A DNA stretch of 44,391 nt from Escherichia phage vB_EcoS_fPoEco01: sequence record NC_073317.1. One strand, written 5' to 3'. Shown piece by piece: positions 5,019-39,034 of the stretch (positions are counted from its first letter, which is position 1; every line of letters starts with the position of its first letter). The position numbers were made by a program, and so were the translations under genes. The notes under the pieces are model-generated. The model saw only the letters and a list, made by a program, of their open reading frames with translations, searched no databases and was not told the DNA's origin.

Positions 5019-5048
5019 AGGCCCCATAATGGGGCCTTAGTTTTATTT
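5019..5048. terminator. bidirectional rho-independent terminator
   Basis: Hairpin AGGCCCC-ataat-GGGGCCT flanked by T-rich tracts on both strands, between convergent genes 4556..5014 (+) and 5043..5564 (-). Confidence 0.55.
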
Positions 5049-5564
5049 AAATCGCGCAGGCATTAACACCATAAAGGCCGTGTTTGAAAATTGTATTTTG
5101 CATCCTCTGGTTTGGTCCTGGAAATCGAAACGAGCAATTTCATTTTTGTATGCCTTAGAAATCTTGTACGCGTCTGCCAAATAGCGCAGAGTGAACCCTA
5201 TACTGTCGACAACACCCGGTGTGATGTGCGCCACGCGTCTCCAGTCAGGAAAGTTTCCTTCTACAACATCTACCGGAAGTGTACATATAAGCGCACGATT
5301 ATCGTCATAGAAAGATACACTGCCGTTGTCGTGGTTTACCTCTGCGTAGTTAAATTTAGAAGGCTCTCTCCCTTTGATGTCTATGAGAGTCCCTTTCTCA
5401 ACGTTGGTCTTCACATTGTCGCAGAACAATCTATGACCGTCCGTAGACACTATCAATCCTTCAGGGTCTATGTAAAAAGCGTTCAAATAGTAGCGAACAT
5501 CATTTTTAGCCCTGCATATTTTCGCCCCTACATACGCAGGGAAAGTAATTACTGTAGTAACCAT
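5043..5564 (-). CDS. hypothetical protein (moron on opposite strand)
   Basis: 173 aa ORF antiparallel to the structural module; own SD AGGAGA, own class I promoter at 5592..5620 and terminator at 5019..5048. Confidence 0.5.
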   Translation of the reverse strand: MVTTVITFPAYVGAKICRAKNDVRYYLNAFYIDPEGLIVSTDGHRLFCDNVKTNVEKGTLIDIKGREPSKFNYAEVNHDNGSVSFYDDNRALICTLPVDVVEGNFPDWRRVAHITPGVVDSIGFTLRYLADAYKISKAYKNEIARFDFQDQTRGCKIQFSNTAFMVLMPARFK

Positions 5565-5591
5565 TTATCATCTCCTGTTTAAGTTAACCGA

Positions 5592-5620
5592 ATAGTACCC
5601 TATTATATTGGGGTGTGCAA
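5592..5620 (-). promoter_or_regulatory. class I sigma70-like promoter (TTGCAC-N17-TACTAT) with embedded AATAG-N4-CTATT palindrome
   Basis: Reverse complement reads TTGCACACCCCAATATAATAGGGTACTATTC; near-identical to elements at 15039..15067, 37339..37367 and 38792..38820. Confidence 0.55.
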
Positions 5621-5715: not shown

Positions 5716-5829
5716 CCACCTGAGCTTGTGAAGTATGAACAAGCGACCGCGGCGCGGGCAGGTAACGGAGCGGGACGTAAGTCCTGAGTGTAGTTACGCT
5801 GACGCGTTCGGAAGGGCCATACTCTATTG
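5716..5829 (+). ncRNA. candidate structured RNA element A (promoter-proximal; paired with copy at 37059..37173)
   Basis: About 115 nt highly similar to 37059..37173 with compensatory changes preserving two stems (GUAAC/GUUAC vs GGAAC/GUUCC; GGAC-GUAA-GUCC vs GUGCC-AUUA-GGCAC) and a conserved hairpin GCUUGU...ACAAGC; no ORF. Confidence 0.45.
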
Positions 5830-11284: not shown

Positions 11285-12451
11285 ATGGCTACAACTCCTT
11301 TTAAGGGCGCGAATACCGCGCAATTCTATGTGGCGGAAACTACCCCGGGCGTGACACCGACTTCCCCGGTATGGTCGCCGTTGCGCAATACTGGCGGTGT
11401 TCCTGCGGTAACCCGCGACGCGCTGACCTCCAACGAACTCGACGGCAGCAGAGAAACCACATCCATCCGCACCGGTAACAAACAGGTTAGCGGGGAGTAC
11501 GCCATCGAACTTAGCTCACGTAGCCAGGATGATTTCCTTGCGGGTGCTATGACTTCTACGTGGCAGGATGGGGTAGAGATTACGGGTGCTGAAATTACGG
11601 TCGCTCCAGCAGGTAAAACATTCACCCGCGCTGCCGGTTGCTTCATTACTGACGGTGTAGAAGTTGGCGACCTGATTGCGTTCACCGACTTAACCGGCGA
11701 CAACGCAAAACCGTTTATCGTGACTGAGGTTTCTGCTCTTGTAGTTACGGGTGCGGGTATCCAGCACACGCTGACAGCAGAGACTGTAACCACCGACGCT
11801 AAAACAGGCGATAAACTGGAAACCGGTAACGCATGTAAGACGTTCTCCATCCTGACATGGTTCAAAGGACAGTGCGGGAACCCTGACGCGTACATGCTGA
11901 CCAAAGGCGTGGAAATCTCCGGTTTCACCATTGAACAGGCCGTAAACGCGATGGTGACAGGCAGCTTCCCGTTCATCGGTCTGAGTCAGGAAATTCTTTC
12001 TGCACCGCCAGCAGGTTCTGATTTCTCTCAGGTGACGTTTACCGATGAGCCGTTCTCATCCGTAGATGTGTCTGTGTTCGACGGTTCTACGCCGTTGCGT
12101 TGCGATACTCTGACCATCACCAACGACAACGGTGCGTCCGCACAGTTCGAACTAGGCAACAGTAGCGTCGCGTTCGTGGAACGTGGTCGCGCGGCTAACA
12201 CATTCTCCATCTCCGGCAAGCTGTACGACATGGCGATGATTCAGAAGTTTATCAACGAACAGCAGGTAGAGATTAACTCTATTCTGGCGGGGGTAAACGG
12301 GGCTATGTCTTTCAGCCTGAAACGTGCCGAGTTGACCGCAGTTACGCCAGAAATATCTGGCCCAGAATCAATCACCCAGAGCATAGAGGGACAGTCCACC
12401 GGCAATCAGTACCAGTCATCTATCGTAATTCAGCGTATTAGTTACACATAA
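11285..12451 (+). CDS. major tail protein
   Basis: About 389 aa, Thr/Gly/Ser-rich, SD AAGAGG upstream of ATG 11285; located upstream of tail chaperone and tape measure genes; followed by terminator. Confidence 0.6.
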   Translation: MATTPFKGANTAQFYVAETTPGVTPTSPVWSPLRNTGGVPAVTRDALTSNELDGSRETTSIRTGNKQVSGEYAIELSSRSQDDFLAGAMTSTWQDGVEITGAEITVAPAGKTFTRAAGCFITDGVEVGDLIAFTDLTGDNAKPFIVTEVSALVVTGAGIQHTLTAETVTTDAKTGDKLETGNACKTFSILTWFKGQCGNPDAYMLTKGVEISGFTIEQAVNAMVTGSFPFIGLSQEILSAPPAGSDFSQVTFTDEPFSSVDVSVFDGSTPLRCDTLTITNDNGASAQFELGNSSVAFVERGRAANTFSISGKLYDMAMIQKFINEQQVEINSILAGVNGAMSFSLKRAELTAVTPEISGPESITQSIEGQSTGNQYQSSIVIQRISYT

Positions 12452-12495
12452 CTTGTGGTATAAGAAGAGTAAAGGATAGCTTTAGCGGGCGAAAA

Positions 12496-12524
12496 AGAGA
12501 GGGGTCGTGCCCTCTCTTTCCTTT
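12496..12524 (+). terminator. rho-independent terminator after major tail gene
   Basis: AGAGAGGG-gtcgtg-CCCTCTCT followed by TTTCCTTTAT. Confidence 0.5.
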
Positions 12525-12558
12525 ATATGGTAAATACACGAGCCTGACGAGGTGAATA

Positions 12559-13191
12559 ATGTTCTTGTATGAAGAATTTGAAAAGATACCAGCATCAAAA
12601 CGGGCGGTATCATGCCGTAAAACAATCTGCGGAGTCGGTGTCAACGATGCAGATTTCACCACCAGTATTTTCAACGGCAAAAAGTCTGTTAACCACCCGG
12701 TGTACGATATTTGGTGTGCGATGATATTCAGGTGCTACCATGGGTCCGTTAAGCATCCAACATACTCAGGAGTGGTAGTGTGTGAAGACTGGCTGTATTT
12801 CTCCAACTACTTTAAATGGTACAAAGATAACTACGTAGAGGGTTGGCATGTTGACAAAGATTTGCTTACGGATTCTAAAGAATACTCACCGGATACCTGT
12901 ATATTTGTCCCAAGAGTTTTAAACAACTTTCTAACCGACAGCGCAGCGGCTAGAGGTGACCTACCGATAGGCCTTACTTATAGGAAAACAAACGGCAAGA
13001 TTCGATGCAGGGTTAATAATCCGCTAACCGGGGTGCGCGAAAACTTAGGCGATTTTACCGATTTGGATGAAGCCATCAAGGCCAGAACGCTGCGGAAGTT
13101 AGAGATAGCCGGAGAACTTAAGCCACTTATGGATTCCATAGACGGGAGAATCTATCCGAGGGCCGTTTCTGTAATTAAGGCACAACGATAA
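12559..13191 (+). CDS. HNH-like homing endonuclease with AP2-type domain (paralog 2)
   Basis: 210 aa; paralog of 3929..4552 with GWHVDKDLL...CIFVPRVLNNFL and AP2-like C-terminus; SD GAGGTGA; inserted between major tail gene and chaperone genes. Confidence 0.55.
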   Translation: MFLYEEFEKIPASKRAVSCRKTICGVGVNDADFTTSIFNGKKSVNHPVYDIWCAMIFRCYHGSVKHPTYSGVVVCEDWLYFSNYFKWYKDNYVEGWHVDKDLLTDSKEYSPDTCIFVPRVLNNFLTDSAAARGDLPIGLTYRKTNGKIRCRVNNPLTGVRENLGDFTDLDEAIKARTLRKLEIAGELKPLMDSIDGRIYPRAVSVIKAQR

Positions 13192-13195
13192 AACT

Positions 13196-13218
13196 AAGGC
13201 CCCTTTCGGGGCCTTTTT
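13196..13218. terminator. bidirectional rho-independent terminator
   Basis: AGGCCCC-tttc-GGGGCCT followed by TTTTT; between + strand HNH gene and the end of the minus-strand moron operon. Confidence 0.55.
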
Positions 13219-13219
13219 C

Positions 13220-13450
13220 TTACTCATCAATATTGCTTCGGTACTCCCGTAACTTCTCCAGGCTTTCGATTGCCTCAGCTAAGTCTGTCCAGGTGTCCTT
13301 GTGACCACGTAAACCCATACACAATAGCTTCTTCAATGCGTGCTGTAACGCCGGGTCGCGTATGTCGAAGGCGCGTAGCACGTCGTAAACGTCTACAGTC
13401 ATGGTGCTGCCGTGGGTGTTTGTCATTGTGCGGTTGTATTTATTTGTCAC
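13220..13450 (-). CDS. hypothetical protein (moron operon, 76 aa)
   Basis: Last gene of minus-strand operon 15067 to 13196; no recognisable motif. Confidence 0.4.
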   Translation of the reverse strand: MTNKYNRTMTNTHGSTMTVDVYDVLRAFDIRDPALQHALKKLLCMGLRGHKDTWTDLAEAIESLEKLREYRSNIDE

Positions 13451-13640
13451 GGTTAACTCTCTTAAATCGGGCTATGCCTGACTCGTTAATGCTGCCTATT
13501 TCAAAGAAGCTGCGATATTTAGGCGAATACATTCTTACGTCGCCGTTCTCTAGGGTGACCCCTTCATATACAGCGCCTACTTCGAATCCATTTTTCTCCG
13601 CGTACGGACTCACATCGGTGCATTCATACATATCTTTCAT
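13440..13640 (-). CDS. hypothetical protein (moron operon, 66 aa)
   Basis: Start overlaps stop of upstream gene (translational coupling). Confidence 0.4.
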   Translation of the reverse strand: MKDMYECTDVSPYAEKNGFEVGAVYEGVTLENGDVRMYSPKYRSFFEIGSINESGIARFKRVNRDK

Positions 13641-14767
13641 CCCAGCATCTCCGGTGAAATAGTTAAACGTGCGACCTCGCCATATTCGGCGCTATAAGTA
13701 ATTACATTTGCACTACGGCCCGACATCCATCCGCCGCGCGAGGCGTAGGCGTCTTTAGCCGCTAAGGTGCGGTGTTGCTCAACAATCATGTTACGGCTTT
13801 CTACAATCTTCTGGTGGTGGAGGTGGCCTACGTGGGCGTAGCTGTAAACGCTTTCGCCAAATGCTTTGCGGAACTTGGCAATCATAACCGGTTCGATATC
13901 GTCTAATCGCGCCTTATGCCCGTGGTGAAAGAACAGCGTAGTTTTGCCGTGTTGGACCATCTTGTAAACATCCGGCGACGTATCGACGAACACACGCGGC
14001 TCATTGTCGTACAGCGTACTAAACATCTCAGCTAACCAAATCATTCCGCTTTCGTCGTGGTTCCCTTGCACGATAAGCAAGCGAACAGATTTATGCTTAA
14101 CCAGCGCCATGTCAACAACACGGCGTACCATACGAATCATGTAGCGGACCAGTTTCTGATAACGAGTGTCCGCATCAAGAACATGACCACTCGCTGGCGT
14201 AACCGCATCCAGACTATCGAAGTGCGCGAAGTCACCCAGCAGGTTAATAACCCCAGTTCCTGCATCTGGTGCTTTCTGAAACGCCGCATCGAACCATCGG
14301 GAGAACAGGTCTTCCGCAATCTTCATATCCCAGTCGTCGCCGCTCTCGTCAGCCCAGGCCAGCATACCAAGATGGAAATCAGATACCGTGTACAGATTGA
14401 GTAGTTTATCGTCGCGTTTGGCTCGAGTCGCTTTAACCGGCGCAACTGGCGTAATCTCCGACTTCATTCCTTCGATCACGGCTTTCATTAACTCGACCTG
14501 ACGTTCGGCGTCGGTGTCTGTCTTAACCCATTGCAACTTAGTGTTGCCGAACTCGTCCACCAGTGACGACGTTCCTTTAATTTTGTAGCCGTCCGGGACA
14601 AGATGGCTAACGTCACGACCGTGACCTACGCCTTTCTTCGCCAGCTTCGCTTTACGGATACGAATAACTCGGTCTGAGATGCCGTATTTACGGGATATGT
14701 CGATAATCTTTGTTCCGGCGTTCAATTCTTCCTGTAACTGTTCGTCGGTTATTTTCTTCCGGGCCAT
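13637..14767 (-). CDS. HTH domain + calcineurin-like metallophosphoesterase fusion protein
   Basis: 376 aa; N-terminal HTH-like segment (ITDEQLQEELNAGTKIIDISRKYGISDRVIRIRKAKL); C-terminal metallophosphoesterase motifs in order: SDFHLG (D-x-H), LLGDFAHFD (GD-x-D), QGNHDE (GNHD/E), FFHHGH, HVGHLHH (GH-x-H); SD GAGGAAG. Confidence 0.6.
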   Translation of the reverse strand: MARKKITDEQLQEELNAGTKIIDISRKYGISDRVIRIRKAKLAKKGVGHGRDVSHLVPDGYKIKGTSSLVDEFGNTKLQWVKTDTDAERQVELMKAVIEGMKSEITPVAPVKATRAKRDDKLLNLYTVSDFHLGMLAWADESGDDWDMKIAEDLFSRWFDAAFQKAPDAGTGVINLLGDFAHFDSLDAVTPASGHVLDADTRYQKLVRYMIRMVRRVVDMALVKHKSVRLLIVQGNHDESGMIWLAEMFSTLYDNEPRVFVDTSPDVYKMVQHGKTTLFFHHGHKARLDDIEPVMIAKFRKAFGESVYSYAHVGHLHHQKIVESRNMIVEQHRTLAAKDAYASRGGWMSGRSANVITYSAEYGEVARLTISPEMLG

Positions 14768-14805
14768 GCTTACTTCCTCGTGTTTAGGATTTGTCCTATA
14801 CTAGC

Positions 14806-14997
14806 TCACTTCTCTTTGACATTCGAGTTGCAAGCCCAGATTAAAATAAATACCCACGGCAGCAGAACCCAGCCGAGAAACAGATTAGCCATGAATATCG
14901 CCAGTTTCGCTTTATGTCCGCGCATATGGGCCACTAAAAACGGGATAAAATAAACTAAAACGATAATGATTAAGAAGAACATAGTAATACCTGTCAT
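14806..14997 (-). CDS. Imm-like superinfection immunity membrane protein
   Basis: 63 aa from ATG 14997 (SD AGGAG 7 nt upstream); two TM segments; sequence MFFLIIIVLVYFIPFLVAHMRGHKAKLAIFMANLFLGWVLLPWVFILIWA matches the YF.P...A..R.H....AIF..NLFLGW...W...LIWA pattern of the superinfection-immunity family. Track ORF extends further upstream without a convincing start. Confidence 0.55.
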   Translation of the reverse strand: MTGITMFFLIIIVLVYFIPFLVAHMRGHKAKLAIFMANLFLGWVLLPWVFILIWACNSNVKEK

Positions 14998-15038
14998 GGT
15001 GTAGCTCCTGTTTGAGTTAACATTGTTGGTGTAAGTGA

Positions 15039-15067
15039 ATAGTATCCTATTATGTTGGGGTGCGCAA
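15039..15067 (-). promoter_or_regulatory. class I promoter (TTGCGC-N17-TACTAT) with AATAG-N4-CTATT palindrome, driving moron operon
   Basis: Reverse complement TTGCGCACCCCAACATAATAGGATACTATTCAC, nearly identical to 37339..37367. Confidence 0.55.
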
Positions 15068-15175
15068 GTAATGTGATAGAATAATTTTGCGCCTAGTGTC
15101 GCACACGAAAAGCGGGTGGTTCCCGTCTGGCGCATTTACCATTAACCTGTAACCTCTTAACCAAAGGATTAAAGA

Positions 15176-15592
15176 ATGAAACTTTCTGATTTTTATTACG
15201 AAGCTGAGGCAGAAAAAGGCGCCCGTATGCCGATACCACTGAAAGACGGCACCGATTCAGGGGAGTGGCTGAACGTTGTTTCACCGGAGGCAGACGTTGC
15301 TGTTAAAGCTATGAGGGCGTTTACACTTGCGTACCGCGCGGCATTAGGTAAATTGAAACCGCTTCGCGATAAATGCGAGGAACTGAAAGATTTCTCGGAA
15401 TACAACATCAAGATGGAAGACGCCGCAACGGACCTTAACCGCCAGTTAGCGCTTGAACTGGTTAACGGTTGGAGTCTCGACGATGAATTTAATAAAGAGA
15501 ACCTGAATACTCTTTTCTCACAATATAAACGACTCGCTGAACACGTTGTTGTTTTCCACAATGAACAGCTTCACCAATTGCAGGAAAAGTAG
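15176..15592 (+). CDS. tail assembly chaperone (gpG-like)
   Basis: 138 aa acidic protein directly upstream of tape measure gene; SD AAGGA. Confidence 0.5.
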   Translation: MKLSDFYYEAEAEKGARMPIPLKDGTDSGEWLNVVSPEADVAVKAMRAFTLAYRAALGKLKPLRDKCEELKDFSEYNIKMEDAATDLNRQLALELVNGWSLDDEFNKENLNTLFSQYKRLAEHVVVFHNEQLHQLQEK

Positions 15593-24555: not shown

Positions 24556-24578
24556 AAGGCCCCGAAAGGGGCCTTTTC
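24556..24578 (+). terminator. rho-independent terminator after tailspike gene
   Basis: AGGCCCC-gaaa-GGGGCCT followed by TTTT. Confidence 0.55.
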
Positions 24579-26547: not shown

Positions 26548-26832
26548 TTAACTATAATAGCTCGCTATTAGGTCGTCAACCTGTTTAAACGAACCAACGA
26601 CAAAAACATTTGCACCACGTTTGCTCATCCGCTCGTGCTCTCGTAGCTGATGCGGGTCTGGCTTCGTGTTTTCGTCTTTCTTAACCTCGACAAACCAGAC
26701 TATGCCGCCTGGGAGAATTACCAGCAGGTCGGGAGCACCCACTCTATTTTCGTACGACAATTTGCGTACGAGGCCGCCAATGGCCTCGAATCGGTCTTTT
26801 GCGTATTTCTGTACGCGGCCCTCTTTAGTCAT
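26548..26832 (-). CDS. VRR-NUC domain nuclease
   Basis: About 94 aa from ATG 26832; PDLLVILPGGIVWFVEVKK...QL..H..M...G motif arrangement typical of VRR-NUC. Confidence 0.6.
   Translation of the reverse strand: MTKEGRVQKYAKDRFEAIGGLVRKLSYENRVGAPDLLVILPGGIVWFVEVKKDENTKPDPHQLREHERMSKRGANVFVVGSFKQVDDLIASYYS
26551..26579 (-). promoter_or_regulatory. class II promoter (TTGACG-N17-TATAGT) with AATAG-N4-CTATT palindrome
   Basis: Reverse complement TTGACGACCTAATAGCGAGCTATTATAGT; overlaps the last codons of the VRR-NUC gene; same architecture at 31182..31210 and 33800..33829. Confidence 0.5.
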
Positions 26833-31181: not shown

Positions 31182-31210
31182 ACTATAATAGCTAACTATT
31201 CAGGTGTCAA
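31182..31210 (-). promoter_or_regulatory. class II promoter (TTGACA-N17-TATAGT) with AATAG-N4-CTATT palindrome
   Basis: Reverse complement TTGACACCTGAATAGTTAGCTATTATAGT in the 87-bp gap between 31215..32456 and 30495..31127. Confidence 0.55.
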
Positions 31211-33799: not shown

Positions 33800-33829
33800 A
33801 CTATAATAGTGAACTATTCACGTTGTCAA
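33800..33829 (-). promoter_or_regulatory. class II promoter (TTGACA-N18-TATAGT) with AATAG-N4-CTATT palindrome, divergent from cro-like gene
   Basis: Reverse complement TTGACAACGTGAATAGTTCACTATTATAGT; AATAGTTCACTATT is a perfect 14-bp palindrome. Confidence 0.55.
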
Positions 33830-37058: not shown

Positions 37059-37173
37059 TCACTGAGCTTGTGAGATATCGCAAGCGACCGCGGAGCGGCA
37101 GGGAACGCAACGCGTGCCATTAGGCACTTGAGTGTAGTTCCGCTGGCGCTTTCGGAAGGGCCAAAGTCTATTG
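37059..37173 (+). ncRNA. candidate structured RNA element B (second copy of element at 5716..5829)
   Basis: See element A; shared core GAGCUUGUGA...CAAGCGACCGCGG...GAGUGUAGUU.CGCUG.CGC.UUCGGAAGGGCCA with compensatory substitutions in two stems. Confidence 0.45.
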
Positions 37174-37338: not shown

Positions 37339-37367
37339 TTGCACACCCCAACATAATAGGATACTAT
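37339..37367 (+). promoter_or_regulatory. class I promoter (TTGCAC-N17-TACTAT) with AATAG-N4-CTATT palindrome; start of rightward early operon
   Basis: TTGCACACCCCAACATAATAGGATACTATTCAC, 25 nt upstream of the first early ORF. Confidence 0.55.
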
Positions 37368-37392
37368 TCACTTATCGAAACGAGACAGATGA

Positions 37393-38791: not shown

Positions 38792-38820
38792 TTGCACACT
38801 GGGATAGAATAGGCTACTAT
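38792..38820 (+). promoter_or_regulatory. class I promoter (TTGCAC-N17-TACTAT) with AATAG-N4-CTATT palindrome
   Basis: TTGCACACTGGGATAGAATAGGCTACTAT upstream of repeat-containing ORF 38852..39034. Confidence 0.55.
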
Positions 38821-38851
38821 TCATTTACACAAACGAGAGGAGAGGCAGAAT

Positions 38852-39034
38852 ATGGTTACTTTGATGATTATGGAGTTCGAAAACAGCGCTGCAACTTACC
38901 GCGAGATGACTATGGCGCAGGCGTATCACACGGCATCACACGGCATCACACGGCATCACACGGCATCACACGGCATCACACGGCATCACACGGCAACTTC
39001 TACAAGGCGCAAATCATCAACTAGTTCGGGGTAA
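38852..39034 (+). CDS. small ORF containing the 7 x 10-bp tandem repeat (coding status uncertain)
   Basis: 60 aa ORF with conserved leader CGAGAGGAGAGGCAGA; codons 25-48 are entirely tandem repeat, giving HTASHGITRH periodicity. Confidence 0.3.
   Translation: MVTLMIMEFENSAATYREMTMAQAYHTASHGITRHHTASHGITRHHTATSTRRKSSTSSG
38925..38994. repeat. perfect tandem repeat, 7 copies of 10-bp unit ATCACACGGC
   Basis: Seven head-to-tail identical copies read directly from the sequence. Confidence 0.9.

Follow-up and report, generated by a model that had tools for sequence, protein, structure and literature searches.

Between the tail tube and tail chaperone genes of Escherichia phage vB_EcoS_fPoEco01 (NC_073317.1; the window, below, is this whole stretch of 44,391 nt), a block of four genes runs on the strand opposite to the tail genes, and it raises the question of whether its products form one functional system. 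The block encodes a relative of the phage T4 superinfection immunity protein Imm, a 376-amino-acid (aa) fusion of a helix-turn-helix (HTH) and a metallophosphoesterase (MPE), and two small proteins; a first-pass annotation had taken the four for a single cassette. We found that the block is a non-structural transcription unit, which runs from its own promoter to a bidirectional terminator and has an HTH-MPE of the T1 gp16 family as its core, and that MPE is conserved independently of its neighbours, in the company of DNA-metabolism genes. The explanation that we favour, with a probability of roughly 0.55, is a conserved DNA-enzyme gene that sits in a recombination hot spot together with independent, exchangeable cargo, rather than one four-protein machine.

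The DNA comes from a Kagunavirus (Guernseyvirinae). Megablast of positions 12400-15300 returned vB_EcoS_fFiEco03 with 99.9% identity at 100% query coverage, and 330 further matching records, mainly of E. coli Kagunaviruses and Salmonella Jerseyviruses. The public fFiEco03 annotation already names the two main genes, as 'superinfection immunity protein' and 'metallophosphoesterase'. For the locus comparison, the window proteins were mapped onto 80 IMG/VR loci and onto GenBank loci. Variation of the slot was followed in 39 Guernseyvirinae loci, chosen through MPE, by clustering the open reading frames (ORFs) that lie from the chaperone genes to the tail tube gene. As an MPE-independent sample, nine Guernseyvirinae genomes were picked at regular intervals along the tail-tube tblastn ranking, and eight of them were evaluable. 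Statements on presence and absence rest on these 39 loci and nine genomes, out of a total of roughly 490 Guernseyvirinae records.

MPE was present in all 39 MPE-selected loci, always in the interval that the chaperone and tube genes enclose and in the opposite orientation to the tail genes, and it occupied the same slot in seven of the eight evaluable tail-tube-ranked genomes. The sole Guernseyvirinae genome found without it belongs to Salmonella phage PSDA-2: tblastn gave no MPE match anywhere in its 40 kb, the palindrome described below had no copy there, and the slot held a 120-aa gene only. MPE is thus near-universal in Guernseyvirinae without being indispensable. PSDA-2 also indicates that neither structure nor assembly of these phages requires the block.

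The positions on either side of MPE changed their occupants from locus to locus. Upstream, Imm was found in 25 of the 39 loci and a 108-109-aa signal-peptide protein (phrog_14165) in 11, with other small proteins in the rest; in the 14 loci that lack Imm it had mostly been swapped for unrelated small proteins, and MPE was retained. Downstream, two mutually exclusive arrangements were seen. In arrangement A (24/39), MPE is followed by the gene for the 76-aa protein, either alone or with the 66-aa ORF (5 loci, as a clean insertion between the MPE and 76-aa genes), an HNH endonuclease gene (6) or a Rha/KilAC antirepressor-like gene (7). Arrangement B (13/39) instead has a PNKP-type HAD phosphatase (PF25109, E 2e-20; phrog_415) and a deoxynucleoside monophosphate (dNMP) kinase (phrog_139), neither of which is encoded in this window. 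The tube/chaperone junction is therefore a true gene-exchange hot spot. Imm has given way to unrelated small proteins, most often one with a signal peptide, as fits an independently evolving exclusion slot.

The family to which MPE belongs is large. The 376-aa protein aligns from its first to its last residues with phrog_704 ('DNA repair exonuclease'; E 3e-165) and is 45% identical to T1 gp16 over its full length. By tblastn the family was detected in 2,038 phage records; it comprises 4,700 clusters at 50% identity, 1,166 of them at E <1e-30. Members are found, among others, in T1, in BASEL collection isolates of Kagunavirus, Dhillonvirus and Drexlerviridae, in Klebsiella Weberviruses and in Jerseyviruses, and the family lacks a dedicated Pfam or NCBIfam model. 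The Pfam Metallophos model scored 20.0 bits, just under its 21.5-bit cut-off, and there was no NCBIfam or PADLOC match to MPE. Homologue searches with the single sequence or a profile returned only relatives of 85-99% identity, and the diversity for structure prediction came from a search for representatives at 50% identity. Among 66 such representatives (31-50% identical), D130, H132, G178, D179, N236, H237, H282, G314 and H317 are invariant, and H315 as well as H182 in motif II (GDFAH) are kept in at least 90%. Motifs I-V (DxH, GD, GNH[DE], H, GHxH) are all present; judged by sequence, the metal ligands are complete and the predicted binuclear-metal centre is intact. GDFAH resembles the GDLFH motif of Mre11. 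PPP-type protein phosphatases carry the signature GDxHG / GDxVDRG / GNHE, and an assignment of MPE to these enzymes, of which lambda NinI was considered as the model, was rejected when the signature motifs were not found.

The AlphaFold2 model of MPE, built on the alignment of these 66 representatives, was of high quality by its scores (predicted local distance difference test, 92.3; predicted template modelling score, 0.79). It consists of a three-helix HTH (residues 8-44), a beta-hairpin plus helix (61-102) and a calcineurin-like core (119-376) with the beta-sandwich MPE fold, in line with the proposed fusion of an HTH with a metallophosphoesterase. The closest folds appear to be those of the nucleases PolD-DP1, Mre11 and SbcD, at a sequence identity of only 12-16%. 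The N-terminal region of family members matches many HTH models in Pfam (LysR, Fis, sigma-70 region 4 and LuxR types). Sequence searches of solved structures with the single MPE or a nine-sequence profile gave only weak HTH matches (LuxR/Lrp-type) and no MPE match. The homologue in Campylobacter phage CPX is without the HTH. The MPE sequence begins with the polar HTH segment and has no hydrophobic N-terminal leader, and the protein is therefore likely to be cytoplasmic.

Outside the subfamily, MPE genes were found in other surroundings. T1 gp16, which belongs to the same family, lies on the main strand, past the helicase and dam methylase genes and ahead of the lysis genes (Tlsvirus U136B is alike), and has no imm, whereas the Guernseyvirinae gene is located in the tail module on the opposite strand. 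In Dhillonvirus Envy, MPE stands between the lysis and terminase genes; in a Vibrio phage, it follows an oligonucleotide-binding (OB)-fold protein. In Webervirus, genes for a HAD hydrolase and then a dNMP kinase come next after MPE, an order that K1H shares. In phiEa1H (Autographiviridae) and similar IMG/VR loci, the series reads 5'-3' exonuclease, endonuclease VII, MPE, PNKP-type phosphatase, kinase and DNA ligase, and in Campylobacter phage CPX a DNA ligase adjoins MPE.

From its fold and its company, MPE probably acts on DNA. We propose that it would be an Mn- or Fe-dependent enzyme, brought to DNA by its N-terminal HTH, which may cut or trim DNA as Mre11/SbcD/PolD-DP1-type nucleases do and would work without a Rad50/SbcC partner. 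Its role might lie in the breakdown of host DNA for nucleotide supply, or in the processing of DNA ends for recombination-dependent replication; that it specifically degrades host DNA is a tentative proposal, to which we give well under even odds. The genes around the MPE core would be exchangeable cargo acting on their own, with imm serving to exclude superinfecting relatives.

The closest functional precedent comes from phage T5, whose A1 protein, a predicted metallophosphatase, is both indispensable and sufficient for breakdown of the host chromosome and works with A2 (bioRxiv 10.64898/2026.04.02.716235). MPE may work like A1 combined with the DNA-binding protein A2, which is a statement of analogy and not of family membership. 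In both cases, an MPE-type enzyme of a virulent siphovirus is combined with a DNA-binding function, and T5 also has a dNMP phosphatase (Dmp). The two differ in that A1 has 556 aa and is separate from A2, whereas both functions are fused in 376 aa here, and in the two-step DNA transfer of T5, which does not apply here. A 65-aa protein with two transmembrane segments, T5.005 (L091:3473-3670, in the T5 locus of our comparison), is encoded directly upstream of A1 (L091:1706-3376), an order that mirrors imm-MPE. T5.005 was tried as an Imm homologue and showed no sequence similarity (BLASTP E 0.085). In its widest form, our proposal would make HTH-MPE the unrecognised enzyme that degrades the host chromosome or processes DNA ends in small virulent siphoviruses and in some podoviruses. 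As a nuclease, it would correspond to A1+A2 in a single chain and work without a Rad50-type ATPase, its products would feed the linked PNKP-phosphatase/dNMP-kinase (ligase) module, and in Guernseyvirinae the co-transcribed exclusion protein would shut the cell to competitors during DNA recycling. We regard this complete scheme as speculative and somewhat unlikely.

Several points weigh against MPE as a DNA nuclease of this kind. A search of the literature yielded no biochemical or genetic data for the MPE family in T1-like phages or Guernseyvirinae. The protein differs from Mre11, SbcD and PolD-DP1 in that no domain follows the MPE core, which ends at residue 376, so that there is no C-terminal capping domain; it has the N-terminal HTH and beta-hairpin module instead, and no polymerase-D partner. 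A Rad50/SbcC-like gene was neither listed in the fFiEco03 annotation nor adjacent in the loci examined, as judged from annotation and neighbour clustering and not from a dedicated profile search. Homology to T5 A1 beyond the superfamily was not supported by hhalign, in which the profile of the 66 representatives gave a probability of 16% for a 21-column match around motif III; A1 also belongs to a different PHROG (phrog_1745). PSDA-2, without a detectable MPE, indicates that the enzyme can be dispensed with in this virion and genome type. In the RNA-seq data of one Kagunavirus, K1B4, the imm homologue was classed as 'late', from sampling at 5-120 min that is too coarse for a temporal class (PMC12645636). 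Finally, the linkage to a PNKP-type phosphatase and a ligase fits end-healing repair equally well.

This last point underlies the strongest competing explanation, in which MPE would be an end-healing phosphoesterase (a 2',3'-cyclic phosphodiesterase or 3'-phosphatase) that joins a PNKP-type phosphatase, a kinase and a ligase in repairing nucleic acids against host nucleases. An MPE module is part of bacterial Pnkp, and T4 Pnkp and Rnl offer a parallel in their action against PrrC. A PNKP-type HAD phosphatase and a P-loop kinase lie directly downstream of MPE in arrangement B, and the same order recurs in two other groups besides Webervirus and the phiEa1H-like loci, with a DNA ligase next in several of them and a ligase beside MPE in CPX. 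However, the window is without these partners and the fold neighbours of MPE appear to be nucleases, and we consider end healing quite unlikely. Another proposal, possible for an MPE, that it hydrolyses small nucleotides, be it cyclic-oligonucleotide immune signals (as an anti-CBASS, anti-Pycsar or anti-type III CRISPR enzyme) or the deoxynucleoside tri- and diphosphate pools, leaves the conserved DNA-binding HTH without an obvious role. Further points against it are that nucleases give the best structural matches, that the gene has exonuclease, endonuclease VII and ligase genes around it, and that PADLOC and solved-structure searches brought up no resemblance to known anti-signalling enzymes; its likelihood appears small. 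It is very improbable that HTH-MPE is mainly a regulator whose HTH binds the AATAG-N4-CTATT operators of seven promoters to control its own and other non-structural operons. The palindrome does overlap the -10 hexamer of the unit, and PSDA-2 lacks both MPE and palindrome, but the latter correlation comes from a single, generally divergent genome. Moreover, operators are more usually bound by dedicated small HTH proteins, of which the window encodes DicA-like and MerR/XRE-like ones. Kagunavirus and Jerseyvirus have the same half-sites, yet their MPEs diverge in the recognition region of the HTH, and the fully conserved catalytic centre argues for an enzyme.

The first-pass annotation had gone further in proposing that all four genes form one accessory (moron) cassette, with Imm and MPE cooperating to exclude superinfecting phages or to interfere with host defence. 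The unit's own promoter and terminator, its opposite strand and its location between conserved tail genes are in line with such a cassette. So are the low GC (guanine plus cytosine) contents of imm (40%) and the 66-aa ORF (44%) in a genome of 50.7%, the true homology of Imm to T4 Imm, and a slot that is a hot spot of gene exchange in which PSDA-2 is without a detectable MPE. In contrast, MPE persists in the 14 of 39 loci in which Imm is replaced or absent. It also occurs without Imm, next to DNA-metabolism or lysis genes, in Drexlerviridae, Dhillonvirus, Autographiviridae, Vibrio and Campylobacter phages, and imm had no match in any non-Guernseyvirinae locus mapped. MPE shares the GC content of the genome (50.9%; the 76-aa ORF has 49%), the promoter belongs to the phage's own regulon, and MPE is probably cytoplasmic whereas T4 Imm acts at the membrane. 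PADLOC gave no match at E up to 0.1 for the four unit proteins or the HNH endonuclease, and NCBIfam nothing relevant. With nothing that links Imm to the phosphoesterase, and with distributions that are independent, a joint cassette is improbable. The idea of an unnamed exclusion or anti-defence system likewise found no support.

The comparison with morons holds in part. Like those of lambdoid phages (lambda bor/lom, HK97 gp15), the block is an extra, independently transcribed unit with conserved late genes around it and a small membrane protein of likely exclusion function. Unlike them, it resides in a virulent phage, uses a promoter of the phage's own regulon and centres on a gene that is near-universal in the subfamily and genome-typical in GC content. 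What stands of the term moron island is separate transcription amid conserved genes, from a promoter of the unit's own to a terminator; MPE, however, is not sporadic (39/39 and 7/8), and its recent acquisition is not supported. Sporadic occurrence was seen for the 66-aa ORF, which tblastn detected in only 24 phage records, all of them Kagunavirus, and the imm slot is replaceable.

With regard to that cargo, Imm matches PF14373 (51.6 bits against a cut-off of 27.9; E 8.7e-14) and phrog_1039 ('immunity to superinfection', E 1.4e-23), and BLASTP aligned it to T4 Imm with 30% identity over 54 aa, including the MRG.K loop (E 2e-12). Kyte-Doolittle windows >2 mark two hydrophobic helices, residues 1-24 and 32-57, with the basic loop HMRGHKAK between them. 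These matches uphold the earlier assignment as an Imm-like superinfection immunity protein and identify a genuine T4 Imm homologue, predicted to reside in the inner membrane. It probably blocks the DNA entry of superinfecting relatives; a literature search turned up no exclusion phenotype test for any Guernseyvirinae phage. Both are small inner-membrane proteins of virulent phages and share a conserved basic loop (MRG-K) as well as a pair of hydrophobic helices, but T4 Imm has 83 aa and is encoded beside the DNA polymerase gene, as opposed to 63 aa and an islet in the tail module here. T4 exclusion also uses Sp. In public annotation, imm has 109 aa (14806-15135 on the minus strand; 14430-14759 in fFiEco03) and extends across the promoter of the unit. 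Its N-terminal extension is without a Shine-Dalgarno sequence, whereas the 63-aa form has AGGAG and spans all of the region aligned to T4 Imm. Because the 109-aa form crosses the promoter and lacks a Shine-Dalgarno sequence there, the deposited start is probably wrong and the 63-aa form the likely product.

The two small downstream genes are less informative. The 66-aa ORF had no Pfam, PHROG, NCBIfam or PADLOC match; its sequence predicts translational coupling to the MPE gene through their ATGA overlap. The 76-aa protein is phrog_2452, present in 774 phage records, with the conserved motif DVYDVL..F....PA.QHALKKLLC.GLRGHKD and a predicted fold of a beta-hairpin followed by three helices. Searches with 25 family members found no Pfam family at E up to 1, and the fold comparison that led from MPE to PolD-DP1, Mre11 and SbcD yielded no informative match for this protein. 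DUF3310 (PF11753) was rejected as its identity, since hhalign against a bona fide DUF3310 domain gave a probability of 0.25% and there was no Pfam match.

The layout of the unit is given in Table 1. Four successive ORFs fill 14997..13220 of the minus strand, and all parts of the operon that the first-pass annotation had described, including its class I promoter and bidirectional terminator, were recovered at their places. Its position between the major tail gene and the chaperones was also correct, except that the unit does not abut the tail tube gene, from which it is separated by the HNH gene. The terminator closes both the minus-strand unit and the plus-strand HNH/tail-tube transcript; its minus-strand RNA folds with -20.6 kcal/mol (z = -5.1). 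A second, near-identical hairpin (AAGGCCCC-GAAA-GGGGCCTT) was seen at 24556-24575, at the other convergent junction, past the tailspike gene. The plus-strand HNH gene has its own upstream terminator-like hairpin (12494-12519) and is missing from most relatives, some of which have a different HNH gene within the minus-strand unit. The tail chaperone and tape-measure genes need a restart of transcription past the bidirectional terminator.

Table 1. Coordinates of the opposite-strand unit, its neighbour, the palindrome copies and the phosphatase-kinase pairs of compared loci (L numbers, with positions within each locus)
Feature	Position	Strand	Remarks
Promoter, sigma-70-type	15067..15039	-	-35 TTGCGC 15067..15062; 17-nt spacer; -10 TACTAT 15044..15039
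Palindrome AATAGTATCCTATT (AATAG-N4-CTATT)	15038..15051		Overlaps -10 hexamer; putative operator
imm, 63 aa	14997..14806	-	ATG at 14997; Shine-Dalgarno AGGAG
HTH-metallophosphoesterase (MPE), 376 aa	14767..13637	-	Shine-Dalgarno GAGGAAG
66-aa ORF	13640..13440	-	Shine-Dalgarno GGAG; start overlaps MPE stop as ATGA
76-aa ORF	13450..13220	-	GTG start; 11-nt overlap with 66-aa ORF
Intrinsic terminator hairpin AAGGCCCC-TTTC-GGGGCCTT	13196-13215		Bidirectional; scored as terminator on both strands
HNH homing-endonuclease gene	12559-13191	+	phrog_953, E 1e-68; between tail tube gene and shared terminator
AATAG-N4-CTATT copies	5591-5604, 15038-15051, 26556-26569, 31187-31200, 33805-33818, 37355-37368, 38808-38821		All in promoter-like contexts
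HAD phosphatase + dNMP kinase pair	L016:5128-5616; L053:5613-6182; L094:5702-6741 (K1H); L008:4160-5232; L007:4169-5244		Directly downstream of MPE

The promoter ties the unit to the rest of the genome. TTGCGC-17-TACTAT agrees with the sigma-70 consensus at 7/12 positions and is weak by consensus alone. The 29-mer recurs with at most three mismatches at 5620..5592(-) and 37339..37367(+), which makes three in the window against 0 expected, and the palindrome AATAG-N4-CTATT has seven copies against 0.07 expected. Together, these recurrences show that the label 'class I' describes a real promoter class. Oriented by their downstream genes, four sites (5591, 15038, 37355 and 38808) are of a type that we call class A, TTGCAC-17-TACTAT, while a second type, TTGACA-17-TATAGT, lies at 26556, 31187 and 33805, ahead of replication operons. 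The seven palindrome promoters thus head opposite-strand islets, replication operons and the plus-strand small-ORF region from about 37.3 kb, and the unit, served by one of them, is part of the phage's own transcription programme. The palindromic promoter is kept ahead of the first gene in 37 of the 39 Guernseyvirinae loci; its Jerseyvirus version is TTGCAT-17-TATTAT, and the palindrome has the same place in Jersey, Ent1 and fBC-Eco01. In the fBC-Eco01 paper, the same motif was reported as a PHIRE 'phage promoter' with seven copies (PMC9825357). As the annotation of the near-identical fFiEco03 genome lists no phage RNA polymerase, the seven sites are best read as host-type promoters with a common operator, and the palindrome is probably the operator of a dimeric phage regulator.

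Further features were noted near these promoters. A weak plus-strand promoter-like site, TTAACA-17-TAGTAT, lies at 15017-15045, where its -10 overlaps the minus-strand -10 inside the palindrome; such a site was not seen at the other class-A promoters. The head module holds a second opposite-strand islet (5043-5564, minus strand) with the class-A palindromic promoter at 5620..5592. Its 173-aa product matches phrog_3007 (RusA-like resolvase) and, more weakly, polymerase processivity factors, and is annotated as a sliding clamp in fFiEco03. A 45-nt direct repeat (89% identical; 5785-5829 and 37129-37173) lies 140-170 nt, between nearest edges, upstream of two class-A promoters, in opposite orientations relative to the promoter at its two sites. 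About eight perfect tandem copies of the 10-bp ATCACACGGC extend over 38915-39005, some 100 nt past the class-A promoter at 38808. Their period is not a multiple of three, and the array might have an iteron-like or regulatory function or simply be prone to slippage.

For a phage group that has been sampled well, the unit in the window is an ordinary case, with members of known families that had been annotated before, and the window itself adds little, given that near-identical genomes are public and both main genes were named before. Worth keeping is the common, uncharacterised HTH-MPE of the T1 gp16 type, together with a testable nuclease hypothesis and its conserved linkage to the PNKP-type phosphatase and dNMP kinase. 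The seven-site palindromic operator offers a testable lead on how small virulent phages time their transcription. If MPE were a host-DNA-degrading or end-processing nuclease, this would bear on the nucleotide supply of these phages, on how defences responsive to genome degradation (Metis / PUA-Cal-HAD) are set off, and on the risk of transduction by therapeutic phages.

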